Positions 6,922 to 57,131 of a DNA stretch of 64,000 nucleotides are shown here, piece by piece. Positions within the stretch are counted from its first letter, which is position 1. The number at the start of each line of letters is the position of its first letter. The stretch covers positions 112,778,001 through 112,842,000 of the forward strand of contig NC_135803.1 of assembly GCF_964213995.1 (NCBI RefSeq), in the 5' to 3' direction. A program made the translations under genes and the position numbers. The notes under the pieces were generated by a model that made no database searches, was not told where the DNA came from, and was given only the letters and a program-made list of their open reading frames with translations. The stretch comes from Mustelus asterias. Taxonomy: Eukaryota.

Positions 6922-9004
6922 TGAAGTCGGTAAAAATACCTCTGGGGCTGGTATGAGTCAAAATACAGTCAGGCTTTATTCTCACAAGCTTGAGGGAGAA
7001 CCTGACCCCTTGAAAGCGGAAGCCAAAGTTCTCTCTGAACACAAGAAGCGTGGACATTTATACATCAGGGTTCCCAATACAAGCCATAAAGCAAAGTCCA
7101 GTTAACAGTCCTTGATCATAAATCATAGTTCCTTTAACAGCTTCTGATAGTCTCTGGATCATGGTTAGAGACTATCTGGTATCCTTGGGTCATAAAGCAC
7201 AATTCTCCTGGTAGTTGTAGTCAAGATGCAACCTCTGATCCCGCGCTCTTCCCGCAGCTTTTCCTTTGAAGTGACTGTGTGCGATTGCAGCTGTCCCAGT
7301 GGGAGTCCTCCTTCAAACGGCCATTCTCGCACTCTACCATTTGGTAGCTGCTTCCTTTGTTTAAATCATACACAAGCCTACGGGAAAGAAAGACTTACAA
7401 CCCAACATCTATATTTAACTGTCTGTTTTATCAGAATGATATAAACAAGCGAGGGAATCATGAACAAATGGCTTATACTACTACCAGGAGCAATATAAAC
7501 AAAGGGGAGACTAGCCATAAGGAAGGGTTATGTTTATGATACATTCCAGGTACAAAGTTCAACCGGTAATTATAGACCGGTTAGTCTTACTTCGGTGGTT
7601 GGTAAATTGATGGAAAAGGTCCTTGGGGATGGGATTTACGACCATTTAGAAAGATGCGGATTAATACGGGATAGTCAGCACGGATTCGTGAAGGGCAAGT
7701 CGTGCCTCACAAATTTGATTGAATTTTTTGAGGAGGTAACTAAGTGTGTTGATGAAGGTAGGGCAGTTGATATCATATACATGGATTTTAGTAAGGCGTT
7801 TGATAAGGTCCCCCATGGTCGGCTTATGATGAAAGTAAGGAGGTGTGGGATAGAGGGAAAGTTGGCCGACTGGATAGGTAACTGGCTATCTGATCGAAGA
7901 CAGAGGGTGGTGGTGGATGGAAAATTTTCGGACTGGAGGCAGGTTACTAGCGGAGTGCCACAGGGATCAGTGCTTGGTCCCCTGCTCTTTGTGATTTTTA
8001 TTAATGACTTAGAGGAGGGGGCTGAAGGGTGGATCAGTAAATTTGCTGATGACACCAAGATTGGTGGAGTAGTGGATGAGGTGGAGGGCTGTTGTAGGCT
8101 GCAAAGAGACATAGATAGGATGCAAAGCTGGGCTGAAAAATGGCAAATGGAGTTTAACCCTGATAAATGTGAGGTGATTCATTTTGGTAGGACTAATTTA
8201 AATGTGGATTACAGGGTCAAAGGTTGGGTTCTGAAGACTGTGGAGGAACAGAGAGATCTTGGAGTCCATATCCACAGATCTCTAAAGGTTGCCACTCAAG
8301 TGGATAGAGCTGTGAAGAAGACCTATAGTGTGTTAGCTTTTATTAACAGGGGGTTAGAGTTTAAGAGCCGTGGGGTTATGCTGCAACTGTACAGGACCTT
8401 GGTGAGACCACATTTGGAATATTGTGTGCAGTTCTGGTCACCTCACTATAAGAAGGATGTGGAAGCACTGGAAAGAGTGCGGAGGAGATTTACCAGGATG
8501 CTGCCTGGTTTGGAGGGTAGGTCTTATGAGGAAAGGTTGAGGGAGCTAGGGCTGTTCTCTCTGGAGCGGAGGAGGCTGAGGGGAGACTTAATAGAGGTTT
8601 ATAAAATGATGAAGGGGATAGATAGAGTGAACGTTCAAAGACTATTTCCTCGGGTGGATGGAGCTATTACAAGGGGGCATAACTATAGGGTTCGTGGTGG
8701 GAGATATAGGGAGGATCTCAGAGGTAGGTTCTTTACGCAGAGAGTGGTTGGGGTGTGGAATGGACTGCCTGCAGTGATAGTGGAGTCAGACACTTTAGGA
8801 ACATTTAAGCGGTTATTGGATAGGCACATGGAGCACACCAGGATGATAGGGAGTGGGATAGCTTGATCTTGGTTTCAGATAAAGCTCGGCACAACATCGT
8901 GGGTCGAAGGGCCTGTTCTGTACTGTTCTATGTTCTATGTTCTATGTTCTTTTGGGTACAAAATACTTTGAGTACAAAAAAACATTAACCCTTTCCCTTC
9001 TTCA
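6922..9004 (-). mobile_element. Solo LTR (ERV/Gypsy-like) split by a CR1 insertion
   Basis: TGAAG...CTTCA termini, 5-bp TSD GGTTG (6917-6921 and 9005-9009), minus-strand TATAAA near 7058 and AATAAA near 6976. Confidence 0.8.
7561..8949 (+). mobile_element. Young 5'-truncated CR1 LINE with an intact RT ORF segment (7595-8866)
   Basis: 423-aa open frame with QHGF, YMDFSKAFDKV, GVPQGSVLGP, KFADD and FFTQRVV, followed by a (GTTCTAT)n 3' tail. Confidence 0.95.
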
Positions 9005-27053: not shown

Positions 27054-27397
27054 AATAGAATCATAGAATCCTACAGTGCAGAAGGAGGCCATTTTGCCCA
27101 TCGAGTCTGCACTGAACACAATCCCACCCAGGCCCTATCCCCATAACCCCCATGCATTTACCCTAGCTAGTCCCCCTGACACTACAGGGTAATTTATCAT
27201 GGCCAATCCATCTAACCTGCACATTTTTGGCCTGTGGGAGTAAACCGGAGCACCCGGAGAAAACCCACGCAGACACGGGGAGAATGTGCAAACTCTACAC
27301 AGACAGTGACCCAAGCCGGGAATTGAACCCGGGTCCCTGGTGCGATGAGGCAGCAGTGCTAACCACTGTGCTAACCACTATGCTACTGTGCCACCCC
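27054..27397 (-). mobile_element. Full-length HE1/V-type SINE
   Basis: Minus strand has tRNA head, V core and CR1-like ATTCTATG tail. Confidence 0.9.
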
Positions 27398-27404
27398 TCA
27401 ATAG

Positions 27405-29013
27405 TCTGTAAGTTGGGACTGAAGGTGGACAAGTCCCCGGGTCCGGATGGAATGCATCCCAGGGTATTGAAAGAAATGTCAGAGGTAATAGTGGATGCGT
27501 TAGTGATTATTTATCAAAACTCGTTGCATTCTGGGGTAGTGCCGGTTGATTGGAAAACGGCTAATGTTACGCCGCTGTTTAAAAAAGGAAGGAGACAAAA
27601 GGCGGGTAACTATAGGCCGGTCAGCTTAACGTCTGTAGTAGGGAAAATGCTGGAATCCATTATTAAAGAGGAGATAGCAGGGCATCTGGATAGAAATGGT
27701 TCGATCAATCAGACGCAGCATGGATTCATGAGGGGAAAGTCGTGCTTGACGAACATGTTGGATTTTTATGAAGATGTGACTAGGGCGGTTGATGGAGGAG
27801 AACCGGTGGATGCGGTGTTTTTGGATTTCCAAAAGGTGTTTGATAAGGTGCCCCATAAAAGGCTGCTGAAGAAGATTAGGGCACACGGAGTTGGGGGTAG
27901 TGTGTTAAAGTGGATTGGGGACTGGCTATCCGACAGGAAGCAAAGAGTCGGAATAAATGGGTGTTTTTCCGGTTGGAGGAAGGTAACTAGTGGCGTGCCA
28001 CAGGGATCGGTACTCGGGCCGCAACTATTTACCATTTATATAGATGATCTGGAGGAGGGGACGGAGTGTAGGGTAACGAAGTTTGCAGACGACACAAAGA
28101 TAAGTGGAAAAGTGAATCGTGTGGAGGACGGAGAAGATCTGCAGAGAGATTTGGACAGGCTGAGTGAGTGGGCGAGGATATGGCAAATGGAGTATAACGT
28201 TGATAAATGCGAGGTTATACACTTTGGAGGAAATAATAACAAATGGGATTACTATCTCAATGGAAACAAATTAAAACATGCTACCGTGCAAAGGGACCTG
28301 GGGGTCCTTGTGCATGAGACGCAAAAGCCCAGTCTGCAGGTACAACAGGTGATCAAGGAGGCAAATGGGATGTTGGCCTATATCGCGAGGGGGATGGAAT
28401 ATAAAAGCAGGGATGTCTTGATGCACCTGTACAGGGCATTGGTGAGGCCGCAGCTGGAATACTGTGTGCAGTATTGGTCCCCTTATATGAGGAAGGATAT
28501 ATTGGCATTGGAGGGAGTGCAGAGAAGGTTCACCAGGTTGATACCGGAGATGAGGGGTTTGGATTATGAGGAGAGGCTGAGGAGATTGGATTTGTACTCG
28601 TTGGAGTTTAGAAGGATGAGGGGGGATCTTATGGAGACTTATAAGATAATGCGGGGGCTGGATAGGGTGGAGGCGGAGAGATTCTTTCCACTTAGTCAGG
28701 AAGTTAAAACTAGAGGACACAGCCTCAAAATAAAGGGGGGTCGGTTTAAGACAGAGTTGAGGAGGAACTTCTTCTCCCAGAGGGTGGTGAATCTCTGGAA
28801 TTCTCTGCCCACTGAGGTGGTGGAGGCTATCTCGCTGAATATGTTTAAAGCGCGGATGGATGGATTCCTGATCGGTAAGGGAATTAAGGGTTATGGGGAT
28901 CAGGCGGGTAAGTGGTACTGATCCACGTCAGATCAGCCATGATCTTATTGAATGGCGGGGCAGGCTCGAGGGGCTAGATGGCCTACTCCTGCTCCTATTT
29001 CTTATGTTCTTAT
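27405..29013 (+). mobile_element. Young 5'-truncated CR1 LINE with ~500-aa intact RT frame (ends 28921)
   Basis: KSPGPDGMHPRVLKE, NYRPVSLTS, QHGF, GVPQGSVLGP, KFADD, WNSLP; TTCTTATGTTCTTAT tail. Confidence 0.95.
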
Positions 29014-41382: not shown

Positions 41383-44300
41383 TGATGCACCTCAATGAGC
41401 ACCCGGAAACAAGGCTTTAGAACTGAAGGCTTTAATACATTAACAATGAAACTACTAACACAAATTCACCCGTTCAGACTGAAGGGGTCCTGCCGGAGCA
41501 GGGGGTCTTATACCCTGCCACCGGAGGCGGGACCCCACTGGAGTGTGCCATGATAACACTTAGGACAGGTAAACACCCTAACCCAACAACCCCAGTGGTG
41601 AACCAACGATGGTTCACCACATTCACCCCTCCTTTAGGAACCAAAGGTGGCGGGGTGGATGAAAACAGACAATGACAAAAAAAATAACAGGATTCACAAG
41701 TCCAGACGGTCTGGAGGACCACACCGACGCTGCGATCTTCTCAACACCGGTTGCGAAACCGGAGCAGGTGCTTGCGGTGGCTCTCTCAAAGCAACATCTG
41801 GCTGTCCCCTCAAAGACTCCCGGGCCGGCCGGCCCTGATGAGGCGATGGTGTAGGGGATCCTGGAACGTTTGGTGGTGGTGGTGGTGGTGATGATGGTGG
41901 CGCCGATCTCCGAGTCTCAGGCAAGCTGTACATGGGAGTAAAAGTGTTATGCACTGGTCCCGGTGCTGACCGCGCCACGTCTGGGGAAGTAATGAGGAGT
42001 AGTGGATCTGTGACTGGGGGAATAGGAGCGACAGGAGTTGCTACGTCCCCTGCGGGCGCCAGGTCTCTAATGGAGACAGTGTCCTCTCGCCCGTCAGGAT
42101 ATGCCACATAGGCATACTGAGGGTTGGCGTGGAGGAGTTGGACCGGTTCGACCAAGGGGTCGGACTTGCGAGCCCTCACATGGCGCCGCAGAAGGACGGG
42201 TCCTGGGTACGTCAACCAGGCTGGCAATGAGGTCCCCGAGGACGACTTCCGAGGGAATGAGAACATCCTCTCGTGGGGAGTAGCATTGGTTGCCGTACAC
42301 AGGAGGGAGCGGATAGAATGGAGCGCAGTTGGAAGGACCTCCTGCCACCGGGAGACTGGAAGGCCCTTGGATTTCAGTGCCAGTAGGACAGCCTTCCAGA
42401 CTGTAGCATTCTCCCTTTCCACCTGTCCGTTACCCCTAGGGTTGTAGCTCGTGGTTCTACTAGAGGCAATCCCGAATGAGAGCAGGAATTGCCTCAAGTC
42501 GTTGCTCATGAACGACGAGCCCCTGTCGCTATGAATATAGCAGGGGTACCCGAACAGGGTAAAAAGCTCACTGAATGCCTTGATGACGGTGGCAGTCGAC
42601 GTGTCCGCACAGGGGAAAACAAACGGAAACCGGGAAAATTCGTCTATTATGTTAAGAAAATAGACATTCCGATCCGTTGAGGGAAGGGGGCCCTTAAAAT
42701 CTACACTCAGCCTCTCAAAAGGGCGAGTGGCCTTGACCAAATGTGCCCGGTCTGGTCGATAAAAGTGTGGTTTGCATTCTGCGCAAATCCGACAACTTCT
42801 AGTAACTGACCTGACCTCCTCCACCGAGTAGGGTAGGTTGCGGGCTTTTATGAAGTGGTAGAGTCTGGTGACTCCAGGATGACACAGATCATTGTGGAGA
42901 GCCTTCAAGCGGTCCTCCTGCATGATGGCGCATGTTCCGCGCGAGAGGGCATCCGAGGGCTCATTGAGCTTCCCTGGACGATACATAATATCGTAATTAT
43001 AGGTGGAGAGCTCAATTCTCCACCGCAAGATCTTATCGTTCTTGATCTTGCCCCTCTGCGTGTTACTGAACATAAACGCCACGGATCGTTGATCCGTGAT
43101 CAGGGTGAACCGCTTACCTGCCAGGTAATGGCGCCAGTGTCTGACTGCCTCCACAATGGCCTGAGCCTCCTTTTCCACCGCTGAGTGCCGAATCTCTGGG
43201 CCTTGAAGGGTGCGGGAAAAAAACGCGACGGGCCTGCCTGCCTGGTTTAGTGTGGCGGCTAGGGCGAAGTCCGATGCATCACTCTCCACCTGGAAAGGGA
43301 TGGATTCATCCACCGCGTGCATCGTGGCTTTCGAGATGTCGCTTTTCAAAACCTTGAAGGCCAATTGGGCCTCCGGCGTAAGTGGGAAGGTCGTGGACTT
43401 AATGAGCGGACGAGCTTTGTCCGCGTAGTTGGGGACCCACTGTGCATAATACGAAAAGAACCCGAGGCATCTCCTCAGTGCTTTCGTGCTAGCGGGCAAG
43501 GGAAGTTCAGTGAGTGGGCGCATACGGTCTGGATCAGGGCCAATGACCCCGTTTTCCACCACGTATCCGAGGATGGCTAACCTACGCGTACGGAATACGC
43601 ACTTCTCCCTGTTATAGGTCAGATTCAGGCGAGATGCAGTGCGTAGAAAGTGTTGGAGATTCGTGTCGTGGTCCTGCTGGTCATGGCCGCAGATGGTGAC
43701 GTTATCCAGGTACGGGAAGGTAGCCCGCAACCCGTTCTGGTCCACCATTCGGTCCATAGCACGCTGGAAGACCGAGACCCCATTGGTGACACCAAATGGA
43801 ACCCTGAGGAATTGGTATAGACGACCATCCGCCTCAAAAGCCGTATATTGTCGGTCCTCTGGGCGGATGGGGAGTTGATGGTAGGCGGACTTAAGGTCTA
43901 TGGTAGAAAACACTCGGTACTGCGCAATCTGATTGACCATATCAGAAATGCGCGGGAGAGGATACGCATCCAGCTGCGTGTATCTATTAATGGTCTGACT
44001 ATAGTCGATGACCATCCGAGGTTTGTTCCCGCTTTTGACTACCACGACCTGCGCTCTCCACGGACTAGCACTGGCCTGTATGATCCCTTCCTTGAGGAGC
44101 CGCTGAACCTCAGATCTAATAAAGATCCGGTCCTCAGCGCTGTAACGCCTACTTTTAGTAGCGATGGGCTTGCAGCCAGGTACCAGATTTTAAAAAAGGG
44201 ATGGTGTCGTGATCTTCAGGGTGGATAGATTGCACGCGGGGCGCTTTGGGCAATTTGGAGGCTGCGGCTGGTTCCCTACTGCCAGTGAAGGGAGTGGCCC

Positions 44301-45947
44301 ACCGTACTGTAGGATCACACTCCTCATGTGGGCCATAAAGTTTAGTCCGAGGAGAATTGGCGCGCAAAGGTGAGGTAGCACAAGGAGCCTGTATTGCTCG
44401 TAAACTGTGCCCTGTACCTCAAGAGTTACCATACATCGTCCTTGGATCGGTACAGACCGGGACTGTGATGCCATGGAAATTGTCTGTTTGGCAGGGAGAA
44501 CCCGGAGTCCACACCTTTTAGCAGTTTCAGGGTGTATGAAACTTTCGGTGCTCCCACTGTCAAACAGACAATTCACAGTTCTGCCACTAACCTTTACCTC
44601 CATCATAGAATGTTCCAGTCTGTAATGCCTGGTCTGATCCAGAGAGATCGACGCCACCGTTGGCCCCTGGGCGTCACTGCATGCTGCCGATGTGGATGCT
44701 GAGGACCCCTGCTGGTCGCTCCTAGTCGTCGTGGACCATGATGGCCGCCCCCATGAATCGCATGTGGCCGAGGGCTCCAAGCGCAGCGACTCCTGGTGGT
44801 CTTCCTCCTCCTCTGTCTGCCACGATGGCGCCTTCCTGAGATCGCACGTGGTCGGACCTCGTGGGTACTGCAGCGCCGAAAGAGATGGTCTCCGTTCTGG
44901 AGGGTTACAAGCTGCACTGCCGTTTTTAGGTTTGGACCTGCAGACTTTGCCGTAGTGGCCTTTTTTACCGCACTGGCTGCAGATTGCCGTTCTTGCCGGA
45001 CACTGTTGCCGTGGATGCTTGGCCCCACCGCAAAAATAGCATCGCTGGCCACCTGGAGCTGCCGCCGTCGTCGAATCGATCTGGGAGCGCGGGTTCGCGG
45101 GGCGAGGAGGGAGCAGAGCTTGCTCCAACCACGTTGACTGCACGTGGTCCTCGGGGTACAGCGCCAAGCTCTTCGACGCCGCCTCCAACCTCACGGCCAT
45201 CCCCATTGCCTGGGTCAAGTTGAGTTTCCCCTTTTCTAATAATTTAAGTCTGATGTACGAGGACCCTACCCCTGCTACGAACGCGTCTCGGGCGAGGTCT
45301 TGCATGTACTGCTCGGCGGAGACATCCTTACAGTCACAACCCCTGGCAAGCTGCAGGAGTTCATTGGCGTAGTCTTCTATGGTCTCGCCCGACTGCCGAC
45401 GTCGTGTAGCGAGGAGATAACGAGCGTGAATCTCGTTGGGTGGCGTAATGTACCTATTCTTTAGGAGCTTGACGGCACCCTGGTAAGTGGAAGCTGCACG
45501 AATGGCTAGGTAAATCGTGTCGCTTACCCTTGCGTGGAGGACCTGGAGTCTATCACTGTCTGTAGTGATAGCTACCGAGGCTGCCAGGTAGTCCTCGAAG
45601 CACTTCCACCAATGTTCGAACGTGTTAGCTGCACCGACCGCACGTGGGTCCAGTGTCAGACGATCCGGTTTTAGGATCTGTTCCATATTCTCAGTTAATG
45701 TATTAAATTGATGCACCTCAATGAGCACCCGGAAACAAGGCTTTAGTACTGAAGGCTTTAATACATTAACAATGAAACTACTAACACAAATTCACCCGTT
45801 CAGACTGAAGGGGTCCTGCCGGAGCAGGGGGTCTTATACCCTGCCACCGGAGGCGGGACCCCACTGGAGTGTGCCATGATAACACTTAGGACAGGTAAAC
45901 ACCCTAACCCAACAACCCCAGTGGTGAACCAACGATGGTTCACCACA
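41383..45947 (-). mobile_element. Full-length Gypsy LTR retrotransposon 1
   Basis: 239-bp LTRs (41383-41621, 45709-45947) differing at 1 nt, TG...CA ends, 5-bp TSD GTGGG, PPT AAAGGAGGGGTGAA next to the 3' LTR. Confidence 0.97.
41694..45686 (-). CDS. Gypsy gag-pol polyprotein (Gag with 2 CCHC knuckles, PR, RT, RNase H, IN) with one in-frame TAA at 44190-44192
   Basis: MEQILKP start, CYFCGGAKHPRQQC and CSQCGKKGHYGKVC, LFDSGS, YLDN, ESDASD, IHSDRG and GQVER. Track ORFs 44190-45728 and 41694-44045 are in the same frame. Confidence 0.93.
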
Positions 45948-46649
45948 GTGGGGGACAGCATAAAATTCTGGCCTTTATCTCTGTAAATTCCTTTTGCTCC
46001 AGAACTCTCCAAGAAACCTGCTTCAGGTCTCTTGAGCATCCCTGATTTTAATGTCTGCATCATTAGATCCTGAGTCCGAAATTCCTTCCGTAAACCTCGC
46101 CACCTCTTTCTTCCTTTCAGAGGCTCCTTAAAGCCTCTACAACTACAGGAATATCTGTATGTGGTTCAGTGTGAAATTTTGTTTTACAATGATCCTGTGA
46201 AGCACCTTGGGATGTTGCATCATGTTAAAAGCACTATACAAATACAAGTTGCTGTTGTTATTAAGCTACTATTCTGTGAATGAAAGCCTATTCCATGGAG
46301 ATCAAAGTGCACGACACAAAGCTGGCTAATTTTTAAACAATGGAGCAACATGATGCTGGAAGAATCCGGCAGTGCTTTGTGAGAATTTATGGGAAGTACA
46401 AATATTTACAGGCAAAGACAGGTTGTTGGGCTCAGTATAGACTTTTGAAATTTTTGGTATTTTACCAACAACCACAGCTGAACATTCTGGCTGGATGATT
46501 AGTTAATTACCCAGTTATAATGGGACTGGATTTACTTCAAAAATAATGATAAGGTTAATGACCCTCACCATTATTTCCACACAAAATGGGATAGCATCTT
46601 CAGGCAAGCATAGAAACGTAGTTACTTCTATAAATACATAAATTATTGA

Positions 46650-47060
46650 TTCATGCAGAAGGCTGTGGGTTTAAGGCCCACTCCAGAAAGCTGAACAGAA
46701 AATCTAGGCTGGCACCCCAGTACTGAGGGTGCAGTGCAGCTGCCATCTTTTGGGTGACATGTTAAAACAAGGCCTGTTCAGCCTCTCAGGTAGACATGAA
46801 GATGACACTTGTTGAAAGAAATGGAGGGGACTCCCCCCGCCCCGCCCCCCCAGCCCTTGTGTCCTAGGCAGTATTTCCTCAATTATTAAAAACAGATTAT
46901 CATTAAAACAGATTACCTGGTCCTATCACACTGCTGTTTGTGAGAACCTGCTGTGTGCAAATTGTTGCCACATAACAGTTACTAGAATTCAAAGTGTTGT
47001 AAAGCGCTTTGGGACATTCTGAGGAAGTGAATGGCGATATGTAAATGCAAGACTTTCCGT
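46650..47060 (+). mobile_element. Deu-domain SINE
   Basis: CAGTACTGAGGG...CTCTCAGGTAGAC...AACAGATTACCTGGTC...GTAAAGCGCTTTGGGAC...GTAAATGCAAGACTTTC. Confidence 0.7.
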
Positions 47061-47189
47061 TCTCAGCTAATTCAGTATCGACCAGGGGGCAAATGTGGAA
47101 TTTTCCTGTTGTGCATGGCACAGCAGTTCAGTGTAGATACTGATTTTAAACACAGAGAGAATTTTACCGGCCACCTGTAGTTACTTGTA

Positions 47190-47737
47190 TTGTGTGCAGT
47201 ATTGGTCTTCTAGTCAGAGGAAGGACATTCTTGCTATTGAGGGAGTCCAGCGAAGGTCCACCAGACTGATTCCTGGAATGGCAGGACTGACATATGAAGA
47301 AAGACTGGATTGACTGGGCTTGTACTCACTGGAATTTAGAAGAATGAGAGGGGATCTCATCGAAGCATATAAAATCCTGATGGGACTGGACCGGCTAGAT
47401 ACGGGAAGAATGTTCCCGATGTTGGGGAAGTGCAGAACTCGGAGTCACAGTCTAAGAATCTGGGTTAAGCCACTCAGGACTGAGATGAGGAAGAACTGCT
47501 TCACTCAGAGTTGTGAACCTGTGGAATTCTCTACCACAGAAAGCTGTTGGGGCCGGTTTGTTAGGTGTGTTCAAGGGGGAGCTGGACGTGGCTCTTGTGG
47601 CTAAAGGGATCAAGGGGTATGGAGAGAAAGCGGGAGTGGGATACTGGAAGTGCATAATCAGCCATGATCATATTGAATGGTGGTGCAGGCTCGAAGGGCC
47701 GAATGGCCTACTCCTGCACCTATTTTCTATGTTTCTA
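47190..47737 (+). mobile_element. CR1 LINE 3' fragment
   Basis: LYSLEFRRMRGDLIEAYKI...NLWNSLP and TTTCTATGTTTCTA tail. Confidence 0.9.
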
Positions 47738-48213
47738 ATAATTGAGCAAATGTAAGTTTATTCAAACTGGTCGACTTTTGTCTGCTGAAGGATCTGAAAC
47801 TGCATCGTACAAACAGCAGTTGGTTACCAGGGCCACTGATCCACCAGCTTTTTGAAATATCAAGAGCACTGGGTTTCATTTCAGAAGTATATTCTACTGT
47901 GCAATTATCGACAACAACAGTCACCAAGCCAAAACATTGAACTATGAATGGAGAAACTGCAGTATATATGCACCAATATATAAGTAATTCGATTATCAAA
48001 AGAACGAGGGTGAAATTCAGAGACATGGCACAAACGTAGCATCAGAAAGCATAAAGTCAGAACATTAGAGGATGCAAAGCAACCGGATTAAAGCTGCATA
48101 AACGGTGACAAGGTACTTTTCTGAGATTATTATTTGCACCATTTAACAGACATTGCATAGATAGAGACAACATTTTCTAATAGCTTCCACAGCTTTTTGT
48201 TTGAGACACTTAC

Positions 48214-48406
48214 ACTTTTTTCAAATTGTGGCTGGAGAAAATCTTCAGCAAAAATGTGGAATTTTATCTTACTAAAGCTGAAGAGAATCACTGATTTTAA
48301 CATGGTCATGGTCTCTTCAAGCCGGTCTCCACAGGCCACCACTGCCAAGTGCATCCATTCTTCTCCATGCCATGTATGGAGGCGAAACAGTGGCTCATTA
48401 AAAATT
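48214..48406 (-). CDS. GXYLT2: GXYLT2 coding exon (193 bp; most 5' exon found in the window)
   Basis: gcctttag|.[64 protein letters not shown]|gtaagt. Confidence 0.94.
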
Positions 48407-48637
48407 CTAAAGGCAAACAGAATATTGATCAATTAAAATCTACCATTACAACTTGATATATGTGCACTGCCAGCTCAATCCTCTTCTTTCCTGCTTCTCT
48501 CATTGCCACATATGACAGAAGGTTCATATCATGTTCACTCTTTGATATCTCAGAATGAGTATAAGGATGGGCACAGAGCCTCAAACACATCAAAGTTTTA
48601 TGCCTTTGTCAATATTGAAAATGGTCAAATATTTTTT

Positions 48638-49784
48638 GACAGATCTTTGAAGGTGACGTCACAGGTGGAGAAGGTGGTGAAGAAGGCATATGGCATGCTT
48701 GCCTTTATAGGACGGGGCATAGAGTATAAAAGTTGGGGTCTGATGTTGCAGATGTATAGAACGTTGGTTCGGCCGCATTTGGAATACTGCGTCCAGTTCT
48801 GGTCGCCACACTACCAGAAGGACGTGGAGGCTTTGGAGAGAGTACAGAGGAGGTTTACCAGGATGTTGCCTGGTATGGAGGGGCTTGGTTATGAGGAGAG
48901 ATTGGGGAAACTGGGGTTGTTCTTGTTCTCCTTGGAAAGACGGAGGATGAGGGGAGACTTAATAGAGGTGTATAAAATTATGAAAGGCATAGATAGGGTG
49001 AACGGTGGGAAGCTTTTCCCCGGGTCGGTGGTGACGTTCACGAGGGGTCATAGGTTCAAGGTGAAGGGGGGGAGGTTTAACACAGATATCAGAAGGACAT
49101 ATTTTACACAGAGGGTCGTGGGGGCCTGGAATGTGTTGCCGGGCAAGGTGGTGGAGGCGGACACACTGGGAACGTTTAAGACTTATCTAGACAGCTATAT
49201 GAACGGAGTGGGAATGGAGGGATACAAAAGAGTGGTCTAGTTTGGACCAGGGAGCGGCGCGGGCTCATTGTTCTTTGTTTCTCGTTTCAAGGCTTCATTC
49301 TATGATCATCTTGCTGGTGCCAGTACAGAGCGAGACTGCGGATAGTTGGGAACCTGTCTCGGGGCCAGGGAATTCAGATGGTGTTCGTAAAGTAGAAGTG
49401 GAAATGAATAGGGTTGGGAAGCATTTTCTGATCAGGGCCAGTGTGATCTCCTGGACTCGTTTCGATCGCCTCAGGGGGTCGGAGAGGAATTTCCCAGATT
49501 TTTTTTCCCCATATTGGCCCTGGGGTTTTTCACTCTGGGTTTTCGCCTCTCCCTGGAGATCACATGGTCTGGAATGGGGGGGTGGGGGTGAGTTAATAGG
49601 TTGTGATGAACAAAGCATCGTAGCTGTGAGGGACAGCTCGGTGGATAGGATATTAGGATGTAGATAGGCTGGAAAATTGGGCGGGGATCCTGGATTCAGG
49701 ATTCAATCCTGGACCGGGGAGCGGCGCGGGCTTGGAGGGCCGAAGGGCCTGTTCCTGTGCTGTATTGTTCTTTGTTGTTCTTTG
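48638..49784 (+). mobile_element. Young 5'-truncated CR1 LINE with extended, composite 3' UTR
   Basis: Open RT C-terminus to 49240. GGACC.GGGAGCGGCGCGGGCT and ATTGTTCTTTG occur twice (about 49244-49277 and 49711-49784). Confidence 0.9.
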
Positions 49785-50090
49785 ACATCTGAACTGCCTT
49801 GTCGCACTAAACGATGAGGGATAATTTACAAAAGTATCCAGTTGTAGTTTTTATCTAAATATAAATTGCCTGCTGCAAATATCATTTAATAGTTTACAGA
49901 ATCATGGAACGGGACAGCAGAGAATAAGACAATCTGCCCTATCATTCCTGTGCCACCTCTGTGAATGAGCTCTCCTTTTAGCCCCATTTCCCTGTAGCTT
50001 GGCAAGTTTTACAACCTTAAGCATTCATCCAATTCCTTTTGAAAGCGACGATGATGGTGGGGTTTGCAATACTGACTGCAAGGTATGATT

Positions 50091-50400
50091 GGGCAGCATG
50101 GTGGCACAGTGGTTAGCATTGCTGCCTCACAGTGCCAGGGATCCAGGTTTGATTCCTGGCTTCGGTCACTGTCTGTGCGGAGTCTGCACCTTCTCTCCGT
50201 GTCTGCATGGGTTTCCTCTGGGTGCTCCGGTTTCCTCCCACAGTCTGAAAGCTGTGCTGGTTAGGTGCATTGGCCATACTAAAAGTTCTCCCTCAGTGTA
50301 CCTGAACAGGCACCGGAGTGTGGCGACGAGCGGATTTTCACAGTAACTTCATTGCAGTGTTAATGTAAGCCTACTTGTGACGCTAATAAAAAAATAAACT
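50091..50400 (+). mobile_element. V-type SINE with alternative tail
   Basis: Same head, core and tail as 20662-20963. Confidence 0.85.
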
Positions 50401-50999
50401 TTAAAATAATTTGGAAATTAAGACTGCTGCTGCTTGACTCGCCCATGGGACAGCGCTTCCAATTTTGGCACAAGTACCCAGAAGTTAGTGAGGAGGACTT
50501 TGCAGTGTCAACTGGGCAGTTGTGCCTTGTCACTTTTGGTGTCTAGGTCGATGCTGGGTGGTCCCTTGGGTTTTATTCCTTCTCAACTTTTCTTTCACAG
50601 TTTGATACAAATGAATGACTTGCTGGGCCATTGCAGTGGGCAATTAAGAGTCAATCACATTGCTGTGGCTGTGGAGTCACATCGGCCAGACCAGATAAGG
50701 GAAGATTTCCTTTCGTAAAGGACATTAGTGACCCAGATGAGTTTTTATGACGATCTGGAGTTTTGTGGTCACCATTACTGAAATTAATTCCAGGTTTATT
50801 AATGAACTGATTTTAAATTCCACCAGCGGGTGTAGTGATATTTGAACTCATGTCTCTGAAGCAGTAGTCCCAGCCTGTGGATTAATAGTCAGGTAACATT
50901 AACACTATGCCACTGTGAGAGCAAACATACGCAAGTTCCCAACTTGAGTTAGGAAAAAGCTGCCATGAGTGGATGCTAACCAGCACTTACCGCAAATGA

Positions 51000-51720
51000 G
51001 AGAATAGAACAGGGTACATTCTAAAGGATGAAAGGCTAGCGACAGTGGCTTCAGGGTCCAGGTACATCGATCATTAAAATTTAATTGGCAAGCTCAAAAA
51101 TATAATCAAAAACACAAATAAAATGCTAGCCTTCATATCTAGCGGAGTAGAACACAAGTGGGTAGAGGTTATGTTTCATCGGTACAAATCCCTGATTACA
51201 CTGCATCTGGGGTACTGTGGACAGCTCTCAGCATCACATCTTAGGGAGGATAAATTTGACCTTGGAGAGAGTACAATGTAGATTTATTAGAGTGACACCC
51301 GGACTCCGAGGCTAAGCCATGAGGAGAGATGAAACAAATTAGGCTTGTAGTTGCTGGAATGTAGAAGATTAAGGGGCGATTTCATCAAAGCTTTCAACAT
51401 ATAAAAGGGGACAGAGGGAGGGTGAATTTTGAGGAGTATAGGTTTAAGAGGTATCATCAAAAAATTAGAGCCAGATTTTTCAGAAGCAAAATGACAAAAC
51501 TTCCTCATGAAAAGTGTGGTGGCATTTCAGACTCTCTTCTGAAATGACAATTGACGCAAGATCAAATATTGATTTTAAAAAGATTGCTAGGCTTTTGTTA
51601 GTCAAAGTTATTGAGGGCCACGGGGCAAGGATGGCTAATCTGGAGTTAAATCACTATCAGCTCTGATCTCATAGCAGAAAGGACTTGAGTGGCTAATTGG
51701 CTTTTCCTGTTCCTATTCTC
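51000..51720 (+). mobile_element. Old CR1 3' fragment
   Basis: Decayed ECRRLRGDFIKAF and CR1-type tail. Confidence 0.65.
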
Positions 51721-52394
51721 CTGTGACCAAGTTGCAGTCAGCAACTATCCTTACAAACTTGATAAAAGCTGATAAAACCCTCCTTGCAAAGTTTCCCAAG
51801 CAGTGTGATGGAGGCAAAGAAATTCTGGGATAATTCAGGAGAGGAAACAGGAGACTACTATGGAAGGATAGATCAAATGAATTCCCTTCTTTGTACGTTT
51901 TAATTGTTAACCTGGCCAAACCACAAGGATCAGCTGAAAAACAAAGAAGTACAGTACTTGAATTAAAGAAAATCTATTGTGAATGGATGTGAGCTATTCA
52001 TTGACAAGAGAAAACAGGTTATGAGGGCAATGGCAATGTTTTCTCACACTTGCTATCTATAAACTTTCTTTAATATCATGAAGTGACTCTCAGGGCCTGA
52101 AGGCAAGAGATAATGGGGTTGAAAAGTAAATTGGCAGCCCATTTTGTGAATAAATGCACATTGAATAGTTTGATTGTTTCTCTTAATTTCAATCATTACC
52201 AACAAACATGGAATCCACAGCAACAAACCATTACATAGCGCAGTGTTTTTTTCCCTTACAAAGTGAATCTTAATCGGTTTTCTATTCCTTACTGAATTTA
52301 GGATTATAAAATCATAATAATCTTTCACTCTTTTGTTAATCAAGAATCTATCTGACTCTGCCTTAAAAATATTCAAAATCTCTACTTCCACTGC

Positions 52395-55300
52395 TGTGGT
52401 GAACCATCGTTGGTTCCCACTGGATAGTGCTGAGCCTGGGGCTGGCCAGTACTACAAGGATGTACATATGTTACTGTTGGGTTGTGCTATTGTTGCTGTT
52501 GGGGTTGGGGTGGGGTTGTTACACCTTTGTACTGTAGTGTTGTGGCACATCCCAGTCGGGCTCCGCCTCCTGGGAGAGGTATAAGAGTCCCTGCTCTGGC
52601 CGGGACCCCTTCAGTCTGGGATAGTGTACATAAGTTCTGGCAGCTTCATTACAGTAAATAAAAGCCTTTCATTTACTGAGCTTCAGGCCTCGTGTTTGAG
52701 TAGCGCATCAATTTTATTTACTGTCGTTAAACTCTCGTCGAAGTAAAAAAGAGAGAGAGTATGGAGCAAATTCTGAAGCCGGAACGCCTTACGCTAGATC
52801 CACGTGCGGTGGGCGCTTCTAACACCTTCGACCACTGGCTGAAGTGTTTCGAAGACTACCTGGCAGCCTCCGCAGCGGTCACCACAGATGATGACAGACT
52901 CCGGGTCCTCCATGCGAGGGTAAGCGACACTGTCTACCTCGCGATCCGTGCGGCCACCGATTATCCTAAGGCCCTCGAGCTTCTAAAGAAGCGCTATACC
53001 AAACCACCTAATGAGATACACGCTCGTTACCTCCTAGCCACTCGACGACGGCAGTCTGGCGAAACGATAGAGGACTATGCGAACGAGCTCCTACAGCTAG
53101 CCAGGGGCTGTGACTGCAAAGCTGTGTCGGCTGAGCAGAGCATGTACGACCTCGCCCGAGATGCGTTTGTGGCCGGGGTCGGATCATCGTACATTCGACT
53201 TAAACTGTTGGAGAAGGGTAACCTTAATCTTACCCAGGCCATCGAGTTAGCAGAGATGCTCGAGCCGGCCTCCAAAAGCTTAGTTTTATATCCGGAGGAC
53301 CATGTGGAGACAACGTGGCAGGAGCAGTCGCAAATCCCTCCTCGTCCCTCGGGTTCGAAATGCTGTGTAATGGCGTGCTCCCATTCGGGCCAGACGACGG
53401 CAGCAGCCCCGGGCGGCCTGCGGTGCTATTTCTGTGGAGGAGCGAAGCATACCCGGCAAAAGTGTCCCACTAAAGCTGTGTTGTGCACCGCATGCGGTAA
53501 AAAAGGGCGTTATTCAAAAGTGTGCCGATCTAAACCCAGGAACGGCAGTGCGGCCTGCGATTCTTCAGAGCTCGGGTCCTCGTCGTCGAAGTCGCCGCGG
53601 GGTTCGTCCACGTGCGAGACCAGGACGACGCCATTACAGTCGACGGAGTCGGAGGAGTATGACCACCAGGGGTCGCTGAGTTTGGCGCCCTCACCCACGT
53701 GCGATTCATGGGGGCAGCCATGTTGGTCGACACTGACCACGAACGACCAGCAGGGGTCCTCCTCATCGACTTCAGCTGCCTGCAGTGGCGCTCATGAACC
53801 AACGGTGGCGTCGATCATCCTGGACCAGGCCAAGCCTCATAGACTTGACAAATCTATGATGAATATCCAGGTAAATGACCACGTGATTTATTGTCTGTTT
53901 GACAGCGGGAGCACTGAGAGCTTTATCCACCCAGACACTGTGAAGCGGTGTGGACTCCAGATTCAACCTGCCAAACAGACAATCTCTATGGCATCAAGGT
54001 CGCGGTCTGTTGCCGTGCTAGGGAGTTGCGTGGTAACCTTGAAGGTGCAAGGCACAGTTTACGAGCGTTTCAAGCTCCTTGTGTTGCCGTATCTTTGCGC
54101 GCCAATACTTCTCGGACTAAACTTCATGGTCCACTTGAGGAGTGTAATCCTACAGTACGGTGGGCCACTCCCTTCACTGGCAATGGGAAAACAGCAGCAG
54201 CCTCCAAATTGCCCAACGTGCCCCGCCTGCAGCCTCCCGACGCTGAAGATCACCACACCCTCCTTGTTCCAGAATCTTGTGCCAGGCTGCAAGCCCATCG
54301 CGACTAAAAGTAGGCGTTACAGCGCTGAGGATCGGATCTTCATTAGATCTGAGGTTCAGCGGCTCCTCAAAGAAAGGATCATACAACCCAGCGCTAGTCC
54401 GTGGAGAGCGCAGGTCGTGGTGGTCAAGAGCGGGAACAAACCCCAGATGGTCATTGACTACAGTCAGACCATTAACCGATATACGCAGCTGGATGCATAT
54501 CCCCTCCCGCGCATATCTGATATGGTCAATCAGATTGCGCAGTACCGGGTGTTCTTCACCATAGACCTCAAGTCTGCCTACCACCAACTCCCCATTCGCC
54601 CAGAGGACCGACAATACATGGCTTTTGAGGCGGATGCTCGCTTGTATCACTTTCTCAGGGTTCCCTTTGGTGTCACCAATGGGGTCTCGGTCTTCCAGCG
54701 TGCTATGGACCGAATGGTGGACCAGAACGGGCTGCGGGCTACCTTCCCGTACCTGGATAATGTCACCATCTGCGGCCATGACCAGCAGGACCACGACACA
54801 AACCTCCTGAACTTCTTACGCACTGCATCTCGCCTGAACTTGACCTACAACAGGGAGAAGTGTGTGTTTCGTACGCGCCGTTTAGCCATCCTAGGATACG
54901 TGGTGGAAAACGGGGTAATTGGCCCTGATCCAGACCGTATGCGCCCCCTTTCTGAACTTCCCTTACCTGCTAGTGCAAAAGCACTGAGAAGATGCTTAGG
55001 CTTCTTCTCTTATTATGCGCAGTGGGTTCCCAACTACGCGGATAAAGGTCGTCCGCTCATTAAGTCCACGACTTTTCCCTTAACGCCAGAGGCCCGATTG
55101 GCCTTCGATAAATTGAAAGCCGACATCGCGAAAGCTACGATGCACGCTGTAGACAAGTCCATCCCCTTTCAGGTGGAGAGCGATGCATCTGATTTCGCCC
55201 TGGCCGCCACACTTAACCAGGCGGGCAGGCCCGTCGCATTTTTTTCCCGCACCCTCCAAGGCCCCGAAATTCGGCATTCAGCGGTGGAAAAGGAGGCCCA

Positions 55301-57131
55301 GGCCATTGTGGAGGCCGTCAGGCACTGGCGCCATTACTTGGCGGGAAAACGGTTCACCCTGGTCACGGACCAGCGGTCCGTGGCGTTCATGCTTAACAAC
55401 ACGCAGAGGGGCAAGATCAAGAATGACAAGATCTTGCGGTGGAGAATTGAACTCTCCACCTATAACTACGACATCATGTATCGTCCAGGGAAACTCAATG
55501 AGCCCTCGGATGCCCTCTTGCGTGGAACATGCGCGAGTATACAGGAGGACCGTTTGCACGCCCTCCATAATGACCTGTGCCATCCTGGGGTCACTCGGCT
55601 CTACCACTTTATAAAAGCCCGCAACCTGCCTTACTCGGTGGAGGACGTCAGGTCAGTAACAAGGAGCTGTCGGGTTTGCGCGGAATACAAACCGCACTTT
55701 TACCGACCTGACCGGGCACATTTAGTCAAGGCCACTCGTCCCTTCGAGAGACTGAGTGTCGATTTTAAGGGCCCCCTTCCCTCAACAGATCGGAATGTGT
55801 ACTTCCTCAATATCATTGACGAGTACTCTCGGTTCTCTTTTGTTGTTCCCTGCTCTGATACATCCGCTGCCACGGTTATCAAGGCATTCCGTGATCTCTT
55901 TACCCTGTTCGGGTACCCCAGCTACATCCATAGCGACAGGGGCTCGTCGTTCATGAGCGATGACTTGAGGCAATTCCTGCTCTCATACGGGATTGCCTCT
56001 AGTAGGACCACGAGCTACAACCCTAGGGGTAATGGACAGGTGGAACGCGAGAATGCTACAGTCTGGAAGGCTGTCTTACTGGCGTTGTAGTCAAAAGGTC
56101 TTCCAGTCTCCCGTTGGCAAGAGGTGCTCCCTGATGCGCTCCATTCTATTCACTCCCTCCTGTGTACGGCAACCAATGCTACTCCCCACGAGAGGATGTT
56201 CTCATTCCCTCGGAAGTCTTCCTCGGGGACCTCATTACCGTCTTGGTTGACGTACTCAGGACCCGTCCTCCTGCGGCGACATGTAAGGGCCCGCAAGTCC
56301 GACCCGTTGGTCGAACAGGTCCATCTCCTCCACGCCAACCCTCAGTATGCCTATGTGGCATACCCTGACGGGCGAGAGGACACGGTCTCGATCCGAGACC
56401 TGGCACTAGCAGGGGACGTAGCAACTCCTGTCGCTCCCATACCCCCTGTAACAAACCCTTTATCTCTTGTTTCTTCCCCGGACACGGCGCGGGCAGCATC
56501 GGGACCATTGCTTAACCATTTTACTCCCATGTACAGCTTGCCTGAGCCCAGAAGATGGTCGCCACCGCAGGGCGTGTCAGGATCCCCTGGACTACCGTCA
56601 CCTCAGGGTCAACCGGCCTGTGAGTCCGTGGAAGAACAGCTGGACGCCGCTTTGGGGAGAACGCCACCGCAAGTGCCTACTCCAGTGTCACCGCCGGTAT
56701 TGAGGAGGTCACAACGACGGTGCGGTCCCCCTGACCGTCTGAACTTATAGACTGCTGACACTTTATTCTGTTTTTTTGTACCCCGCCGGCCTTTGTTCTC
56801 AAAGGAGGGGTGAATGTGGTAAACCATCGTTGGTTCCCACTGGATAGTACTGAGCCAGGGTCTGGCCAGTACTACAAGGATGTACATATGTTACTGTTGG
56901 GTTGTGCTATTGTTGCTGTTGGGGTTGGGGTGGGGTTGTTACACCTTTGTACTGTAGTGTTGTGGCACATCCCAGTCGGGCTCCGCCTCCTGGGAGAGGT
57001 ATAAGAGTCCCTGCTCTGGCCGGGACCCCTTCAGTCTGGGATAGTGTATATAAGTTCTGGTAGATTCGTTAACAGTAAATAAAAGCCTTTCATTTACTGA
57101 GCTTCAAGCCTCGTGTCTGAATAGCGCATCA
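52395..57131 (+). mobile_element. Full-length Gypsy LTR retrotransposon 2
   Basis: LTRs 52395-52710 and 56815-57131, TG...CA ends, 5-bp TSD ACTGC, PPT AAAGGAGGGGTGAA at 56801-56814, TATAAGA and AATAAA in the LTR. Confidence 0.97.
52761..56750 (+). CDS. Gypsy single-ORF gag-pol polyprotein with one in-frame TAG at 56088-56090
   Basis: 1109-aa ORF with Gag CCHC, LFDSGS, YLDN, RNase H and the IN core, continuing in frame to PPDRLNL*; colinear with element 1. Confidence 0.94.

Follow-up and report, generated by a model that had tools for sequence, protein, structure and literature searches.

Priming of reverse transcription by an element's own transcript is proven in the Tf elements of fission yeast only, and has otherwise been predicted, among chromovirus relatives and in one plant Copia lineage. 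In Tf1, Tf2 and Tj1 of Schizosaccharomyces pombe and S. japonicus, the first 11 nucleotides (nt) of the transcript are released by an RNase H cut and serve as primer (PMC7175516, PMC4600332, PMC5341516 and PMC11042837, in the portions available). The portions available of PMC6317226 report self-priming predicted from sequence for vertebrate sushi elements and plant and fungal Tcn1 chromoviruses, as well as for the plant Copia TAR lineage (Houba, Osr-1). Fungal elements of the Tf1/sushi group are likewise named as self-priming. Skipper, fungal GalEa and the bivalve TRIMs are described as having no primer-binding site, with their priming left unexplained (PMC5006619 and PMC6934838, in part). Here we analyse two Gypsy elements in a 64,000-nt stretch of the Mustelus asterias genome (GCF_964213995.1, NC_135803.1:112,778,001-112,842,000; hereafter the window, to which all positions refer), element 1 on the minus strand and element 2 on the plus strand, in which the position of the transfer RNA (tRNA) binding site is occupied by a segment antisense to the element's own long terminal repeat (LTR).

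Both elements have the protease-reverse transcriptase-RNase H-integrase (PR-RT-RH-IN) order behind gag, between short TG...CA LTRs, with a polypurine tract and 5-bp target-site duplications, which identifies them as Ty3/Gypsy; in a comparison with solved structures, the best match was the Ty3 polyprotein. An earlier note on this DNA had reported that neither 5' LTR is followed by TGG and that an antisense copy of LTR sequence follows instead, and its coordinates and letters all check. In element 1 the terminal CA of the LTR is followed by one spacer A and then by 14 nt exactly antisense to LTR positions 45757-45770, with a loop of 49 nt; in element 2, again after CA and a spacer A, 13 nt match the reverse complement of 52651-52663 letter for letter, with a loop of 48 nt. 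A scan of the whole 64 kb for perfect inverted repeats of at least 13 bp with a 40-60 nt loop returned just these two hairpins. The motif TATAAGA, placed by the note about 60 nt upstream of the LTR partner segment, lies ~62-64 nt ahead of it in both elements. Elements 1 and 2 are relatives (87% identity over 2677 nt of pol) and therefore do not represent two independent cases; independent variation comes from a survey of the family.

This survey comprised 250 gag starts (loci fetched twice being counted twice), of which 226 were anchored by the first four or five pairs and 24 were not anchorable. It yielded 38 distinct partner 14-mers, 22 from the M. asterias genome (own-genome types) and 16 from metagenomes. 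Since the search patterns fixed the first six letters of the primer site, only positions 7 onward are informative. Positions 7-13 are paired in 244 of 266 cells (own genome 134/154, metagenome 110/112; five mismatches come from copies selected for a change), whereas shuffling partners among types in 5000 trials gave a mean of 128 paired cells and a maximum of 162. When 10 distant members were aligned, unguided, with MAFFT, 97% of cells were paired and 10 of 14 pairs had changed on both sides; none of 500 shuffles scored as high, and slid partners reached 27-49%. Covariation among family members had been proposed as a test in the earlier note, and changed letters indeed stay paired both in this genome and in the metagenome relatives. 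The pairing is a real, lineage-wide feature.

The geometry of the duplex is constant at one of its ends. In 38/38 types a single base (CAA or CAT) separates the antisense arm from the end of the LTR, which is partly fixed by the anchoring rule, and the arm still starts one base after CA where the LTR end was determined independently from LTR pairs. The 3' edge of the pairing is sharp, with an AAA that is invariant at the partner 3' end in the 38 types and is followed by GC, AC or CC, and this end resembles the signature of a cut site more than it does a poly(A) signal. The 5' edge is ragged (12-19 bp, often with a pyrimidine first), and pairing drops beyond position 13-16. Within the partner, positions 1-6 vary little among the 38 types, while 33 of them, including all 16 from metagenomes, have a G-C pair at position 10 amid variable neighbours. 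The duplex dominates the predicted ensemble in 29/38 types, and in many, stems of differing form are predicted directly after the partner, where the Tf1/sushi group has a structured loop resembling the U5-IR stem of retroviruses. In the loops of elements 1 and 2 and of L127, L128, L129, L133 and L140, a short stem arises from the first base after the partner, in G-C and A-U versions according to family; such a stem may help to mark a cut.

More distant relatives were reached through a homologue search in which 690 of 8000 scored candidates passed a threshold of E 1e-100 and 120 were listed; an alignment of 43 homologues then led to 80 metagenome loci. Among metagenome gag starts with enough upstream DNA, 22/33 display a perfect run of 10-19 bp. 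The trait is found on many branches of an RT-RH tree, among members sharing 46-65% identity with the family of element 1; the tree holds this lineage alone, and the RT of L176, in a nested, opposite-strand arrangement, was ignored. No TGG-led tRNA site was found in the window elements or the 38 partner types. In L156, L176 and L191 the duplex extends to within 1-2 bases of the gag start codon, where it could also affect translation.

Within M. asterias, a pattern combining the LTR end, the T-rich site and the gag start had 806 genome matches, and a control pattern none; the exact pairing of element 1 is present in 486 copies. The copies fetched fall into many subfamilies with differing primer sites, each antisense to its own LTR. 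A search for copies without T at the second position gave 21 matches; the ones inspected proved to be point changes or else fortuitous matches at a more downstream place, and none of them was a different type of site. Among copies found by protein alone, without any pattern, L257, L259, L261 and L262 pair perfectly and L260 pairs with two changes. Two internally deleted copies (L282, L325), with ~1.3 kb between LTR starts, have kept both the pairing and the target duplications and are possible non-autonomous forms. Elements with tRNA priming coexist in the same genome, as exemplified by L307 (C18:36768200-36778100), an older LTR element with a TGG-type site and the RT downstream of an integrase-tail match.

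The manner in which partner and primer site stay in step was followed in 15 young copies, whose nearest neighbours with a differing partner are 0.8-3% apart in the body; rates were recomputed on these 15, L245 being one base out of register and L254 misaligned. Here parsimony assigns 13 steps to the partner, and 13 in the primer site mirror them. Loss of complementarity in young copies had been named in advance as a refutation, and 0/195 cells are unpaired in this set, mismatched copies being present elsewhere. Partner positions 7-11 account for 12 steps, compared with 0.41 per site at pol third positions and a maximum of 9 in 698 windows of five pol third positions, a rate inflated because the 15 copies were picked partly for differing partners. 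Even so, there is clearly no slowing of the partner, as would be expected of a paired segment maintained by selection only. Under selection by itself, each change would have to be followed by an exact second mutation, and under copying by none, so that the tracking fits copying better. About half of Tf1 complementary DNA (cDNA) carries a primer site reverse-transcribed from the primer, according to the available part of PMC11042837. The tracking in M. asterias can be taken as indirect evidence for the partner as primer. The earlier claim of selection on the structure holds as regards covariation, but selection is not a necessary cause, since copying of an RNA primer into the plus strand would give the same result.

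That these elements prime themselves in some form appears highly probable. The specific version we favour, and consider somewhat better than an even bet, is internal, tRNA-free self-priming of a Tf1-like kind, with the primer cut from the element's own leader. The primer site would pair with a 13-17 nt segment of the LTR in the transcript, which would itself begin at a TATA-initiator pair ~50 nt upstream of the cut, so that the primer would be a 5' fragment of ~50 nt with its last 13-17 nt paired. By analogy with Tf1, the element's own RNase H, a domain present in both window elements, would cut just behind the terminal AAA. Minus strong-stop DNA of ~50 nt would then jump to a short repeat between the cut and the poly(A) site, and plus-strand synthesis would copy the primer, rewriting the primer site from the LTR and keeping both in step. 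In this host group the duplex would also cover the AATAAA or ATTAAA of the 5' LTR only, and could help in suppressing early polyadenylation, as a secondary role.

The proposed start relies on promoter motifs. TATA is followed by TCAGT after 31-34 nt in 17/22 own-genome types and after 42 nt in one more; three of the remainder have no initiator match and one no TATA match. A TATA-initiator spacing of 31-34 nt is that of the textbook core promoter. The initiator lies 49-54 nt from the partner 3' end in own-genome types, from which we infer that the paired segment is ~35-40 nt inside the RNA. This agrees with the earlier suggestion that the partner is internal to the transcript and not at the cap. 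Initiators in LTRs are discussed in the accessible part of PMC3601003. A search for RNA ends in the contigs of X1-X4 gave neither a start nor an end nor a loose poly(A) end, a result that weighs neither for nor against.

The principal alternative, which we regard as unlikely, is priming exactly as in Tf1: the transcript would start at the first paired base, the primer would be its first 13-17 nt, and the upstream TATA-initiator pair would serve another transcript or be misread. The pairing, the covariation and the recombinant data presented below fit this equally well, Tf2 is known to use alternative start sites of which one supports replication (PMC5341516, in part), and a TATA-like stretch is present ~25 nt before the partner in element 2's family. 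That stretch is, however, missing from element 1's family and most others, and both the upstream TATA-TCAGT spacing kept in 17/22 types and the ragged, often pyrimidine-led 5' edge argue against a start at the first paired base.

A very doubtful alternative is that the duplex acts mainly as a poly(A) mask or packaging structure and that another RNA or a protein primes. All 22 own-genome partners cover AATAAA (18) or ATTAAA (4), and the antisense arm lies behind the 5' LTR only, which makes masking plausible for this host. In metagenome partners, however, the hexamer AATAAA/ATTAAA is present in 9/16, the other seven having GTTAAA (4), TTTAAA, GCTAAA or GATAAA, and in L129 AATAAA is in the unpaired loop. 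Moreover, a mask would not need the fixed one-base offset from the LTR end, and it would leave no other primer site. Masking of the poly(A) signal may be a secondary role in this host group. The earlier note had taken the hexamer for the conserved target of pairing and the duplex for one switch governing both priming and poly(A) choice: the former is borne out in this genome and contradicted by 7 of the 16 metagenome types, and of the switch the self-priming half is the best reading while the poly(A) half is weaker.

A recombinant copy bears on where strong-stop DNA may end. The recombinant L266 combines sequence of subfamilies A and B; its two chimeric LTRs are identical, its target duplication is intact and its parents cross over ~0.6-0.8 kb into gag. 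Its LTR follows the 3' parent at all nine diagnostic sites through the partner, and the 5' parent from 11 nt beyond. Such a switch at the predicted cut would be expected if strong-stop DNA ends there. This copy is relevant to a further alternative, of equally slight standing as the mask, in which the primer derives from the LTR but is supplied otherwise, as the trimmed 3' end of genomic RNA or as a solo or 3' LTR transcript acting in trans, leaving the template 5' end uncut. The partner ends in an A run like the start of a tail, solo LTRs are present, and covariation at the family level would be kept. With a primer from outside, however, full-length strong-stop DNA would reach the cap and the partner would come from the 5' parent, unlike in L266 (one copy), and element 1 has no poly(A) hexamer upstream of the partner. 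Priming by a host RNA such as a tRNA fragment or small nuclear RNA, with the LTR match incidental or due to inverted-repeat correction while DNA is copied, is highly improbable and already largely excluded: half-tRNA primers are known in Copia lineages (PMC6317226, in part), and the G-C at position 10 and the little-varied positions 1-6 would suit it, but subfamilies 2% apart can have sites unlike at as many as four adjacent letters, always tracking the LTR, whereas priming by a host RNA would return the site to a single sequence, and there is no TGG, no Rfam match over the region and nothing relevant from ARAGORN.

Several observations weigh against internal self-priming. The start site is deduced from the spacing of motifs in a single host genome, and no comparable TATA-initiator pair is evident by eye in the metagenome LTRs. 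Mismatch-bearing copies exist, two of them with the same mismatch; among the metagenome gag starts, 11/33 have a perfect run of less than 10 bp, five of these 11 pairing with mismatches (mismatched pairing was seen at L155, L157 by inspection, L162, L183, L187 and L204). Leader folding energies are unremarkable (z -1.4 and -0.3), and in one fold window a local hairpin competes with the duplex of element 2's type. The inflated rate in the 15 young copies belongs here as well, as does the fact that a direct footprint of rewriting, i.e. one parent's primer site between the other's flanks, did not emerge from a search for it. The evidence from recombinants comes from one copy, which early strand transfer could also yield. 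Single LTRs commonly contain short patches from another subfamily (L286, L288, L317, L318, L319, L326), and in two patched copies the switch lies upstream of the partner, so that LTR chimeras also arise otherwise.

B-type copies with A-like flanks, considered as candidate footprints of rewriting, were rejected because their flanks are ancestral states common to subfamily C. Searches for further recombinants, with partner and primer site from mixed subfamilies, gave 3 and 1 copies and then none, with no other clean recombinant in both LTRs, the remainder being patches in a single LTR or point changes; in 11 copies the partner of element 2 is followed by a primer site with one letter changed. 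Short, subfamily-marking patches often distinguish the two LTRs of young copies whose target duplications are intact, as in element 2, L099, L106, L275, L286, L288, L317-L319 and L326, which suggests that gene conversion or strand transfer between molecules is frequent.

Features of elements 1 and 2 in the window; starts, primer ends and promoter motifs are predictions
Feature	Position	Strand	Remarks
Element 1 5' LTR (239 nt, TG...CA)	45709..45947	-	1 difference from 3' LTR
Element 1 candidate TATA box, TATAAGA	45832..45838	-	kept across subfamilies
Element 1 initiator-like TCAGT	45801..45809	-	predicted start 45806, 32 nt after TATA; from spacing
Element 1 LTR partner segment, holds ATTAAA	45757..45770	-	predicted primer 3' end at 45757
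Element 1 49-nt loop (LTR remainder and one spacer A)	45708..45756	-	predicted fold: irregular stem
Element 1 primer-binding-site position, no TGG	45694..45707	-	antisense to 45757-45770
Element 1 gag-PR-RT-RH-IN frame	41694..45686	-	one in-frame stop, 44190-44192; RT YLDN; neither env nor chromodomain
Element 1 polypurine tract and spacer	41622..41640	-	
Element 1 3' LTR	41383..41621	-	5-bp target-site duplication, both flanks
Element 2 5' LTR (316 nt, TG...CA)	52395..52710	+	
Element 2 candidate TATA box, TATAAGA	52580..52586	+	
Element 2 initiator-like TCAGT	52610..52618	+	predicted start 52613, 33 nt after TATA; from spacing
Element 2 LTR partner segment, holds AATAAA	52651..52663	+	predicted primer 3' end at 52663
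Element 2 48-nt loop (LTR remainder and one spacer A)	52664..52711	+	
Element 2 primer-binding-site position, no TGG	52712..52724	+	antisense to 52651-52663
Element 2 gag-PR-RT-RH-IN frame	52761..56750	+	one in-frame stop, 56088-56090; RT YLDN; neither env nor chromodomain
Element 2 polypurine tract and spacer	56796..56814	+	
Element 2 3' LTR	56815..57131	+	11 substitutions and 1 indel relative to 5' LTR; 5-bp target-site duplication intact

The nearest named proteins are from sharks and rays (79-83% RT-RH identity), and the listed homologues include, at the protein level alone, named proteins of cnidarians, sea cucumber, nematode, insect and crustacean; a viral contig collection held no relatives. 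Neither a Chromo nor an SH3_Tf2-1 domain was detected in the 4 window frames or in any of the 15 homologues scanned out of the 120 listed. Matches to SH3_Tf2-1 were considered as tree outgroups (16 of 48 fetched) and discarded as too decayed. Gag in this lineage has two CCHC knuckles, presumably resembling those of Mag; the Gag of CsRN1 has a CHCC motif. The LTR 5' end TGTGGYG, a signature of the CsRN1 clade in the accessible part of PMC3601003 (Table 3), is present in this genome and absent from most metagenome relatives. Naming of the clade by motif in the supplements of PMC6238403 and PMC8556966 gave no match among the files that were legible. The RT motif is YLDN, not YxDD, in both window elements, and YxDN in 79/120 listed homologues; a literature search for the YLDN motif returned nothing. 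Young copies of this YxDN-type family, nearly identical and with open frames, nonetheless number in the hundreds. Elsewhere in the window, other long open frames (7499-8866, 27167-28921) and many dispersed repeats of 60-250 nt are probably pieces of long and short interspersed elements.

It is possible, though we put it forward tentatively, that these elements represent a large animal Gypsy lineage unrelated to chromoviruses, most members with YxDN, which evolved a tRNA-free priming system of its own, in which one duplex would mark an internal cut that makes a primer of a capped leader of ~50 nt, hide the 5' poly(A) signal and, through copying of the primer into the primer site in every cycle, form a fast-changing lock and key for each subfamily. 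If self-priming holds, this would be a second self-priming Gypsy lineage, with hundreds of young copies and named protein relatives spanning cnidarians, arthropods and cartilaginous fish, and escape from the host tRNA would have occurred more than once and on a large scale. The geometry of an internal primer would be new, and its overlap with the poly(A) signal a simple way for the 5' LTR to avoid early termination. Such elements would be blind to defence by tRNA fragments and be missed by tools that require a tRNA site. The predictions made here are precise to the single base. In the literature searched (the available parts of PMC6317226, PMC3601003, PMC5006619, PMC10680173, PMC6238403, PMC4600332, PMC2774666, PMC7472051, PMC5341516, PMC6934838, PMC9873768, PMC7175516, PMC13524379 and PMC11042837), we found no description of this lineage or of a primer site over a poly(A) signal.

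Compared with known systems, this lineage shares the lack of a TGG site with Skipper, GalEa and the bivalve TRIMs; in the parts of their descriptions available, however, no LTR-complementary segment is reported for Skipper, and GalEa and the bivalve TRIMs have internal hairpins. The Copia TAR lineage, with its predicted self-priming outside Tf1 and sushi, is a precedent for repeated origin, but it is a plant lineage of the Copia superfamily and is described, in the part of the source available, with no link to a poly(A) signal. With sushi and Tcn1 the lineage has in common that, in Gypsy elements, vertebrate ones included, the sequence of the primer site is complementary to that of the LTR; unlike these chromoviruses, it has LTRs of ~140-320 nt, two Gag zinc knuckles, mostly YxDN and no chromodomain. 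In HIV-1, a tRNA-primed virus, pairing within a local hairpin hides the AAUAAA of the 5' LTR, whereas here the mask would be the primer site itself. The closest likeness is to Tf1, Tf2 and Tj1, which also have no tRNA site and a primer site that pairs with their own 5' LTR; as in Tf1, cutting at the duplex's 3' edge would release the primer, and the Tf1 primer site is copied from the primer into cDNA. The lineage is Tf1-like in everything that can be read from sequence, except that neither a chromodomain nor SH3_Tf2-1 was found. The position of the primer probably differs as well: in Tf1 it is, by experiment, the first 11 nt, whereas here the duplex is of 13-17 bp, one base off the LTR end and with a conserved AAA followed by GC, AC or CC, and its partner is predicted to lie ~35-40 nt inside the transcript, where in this host it covers the poly(A) hexamer.

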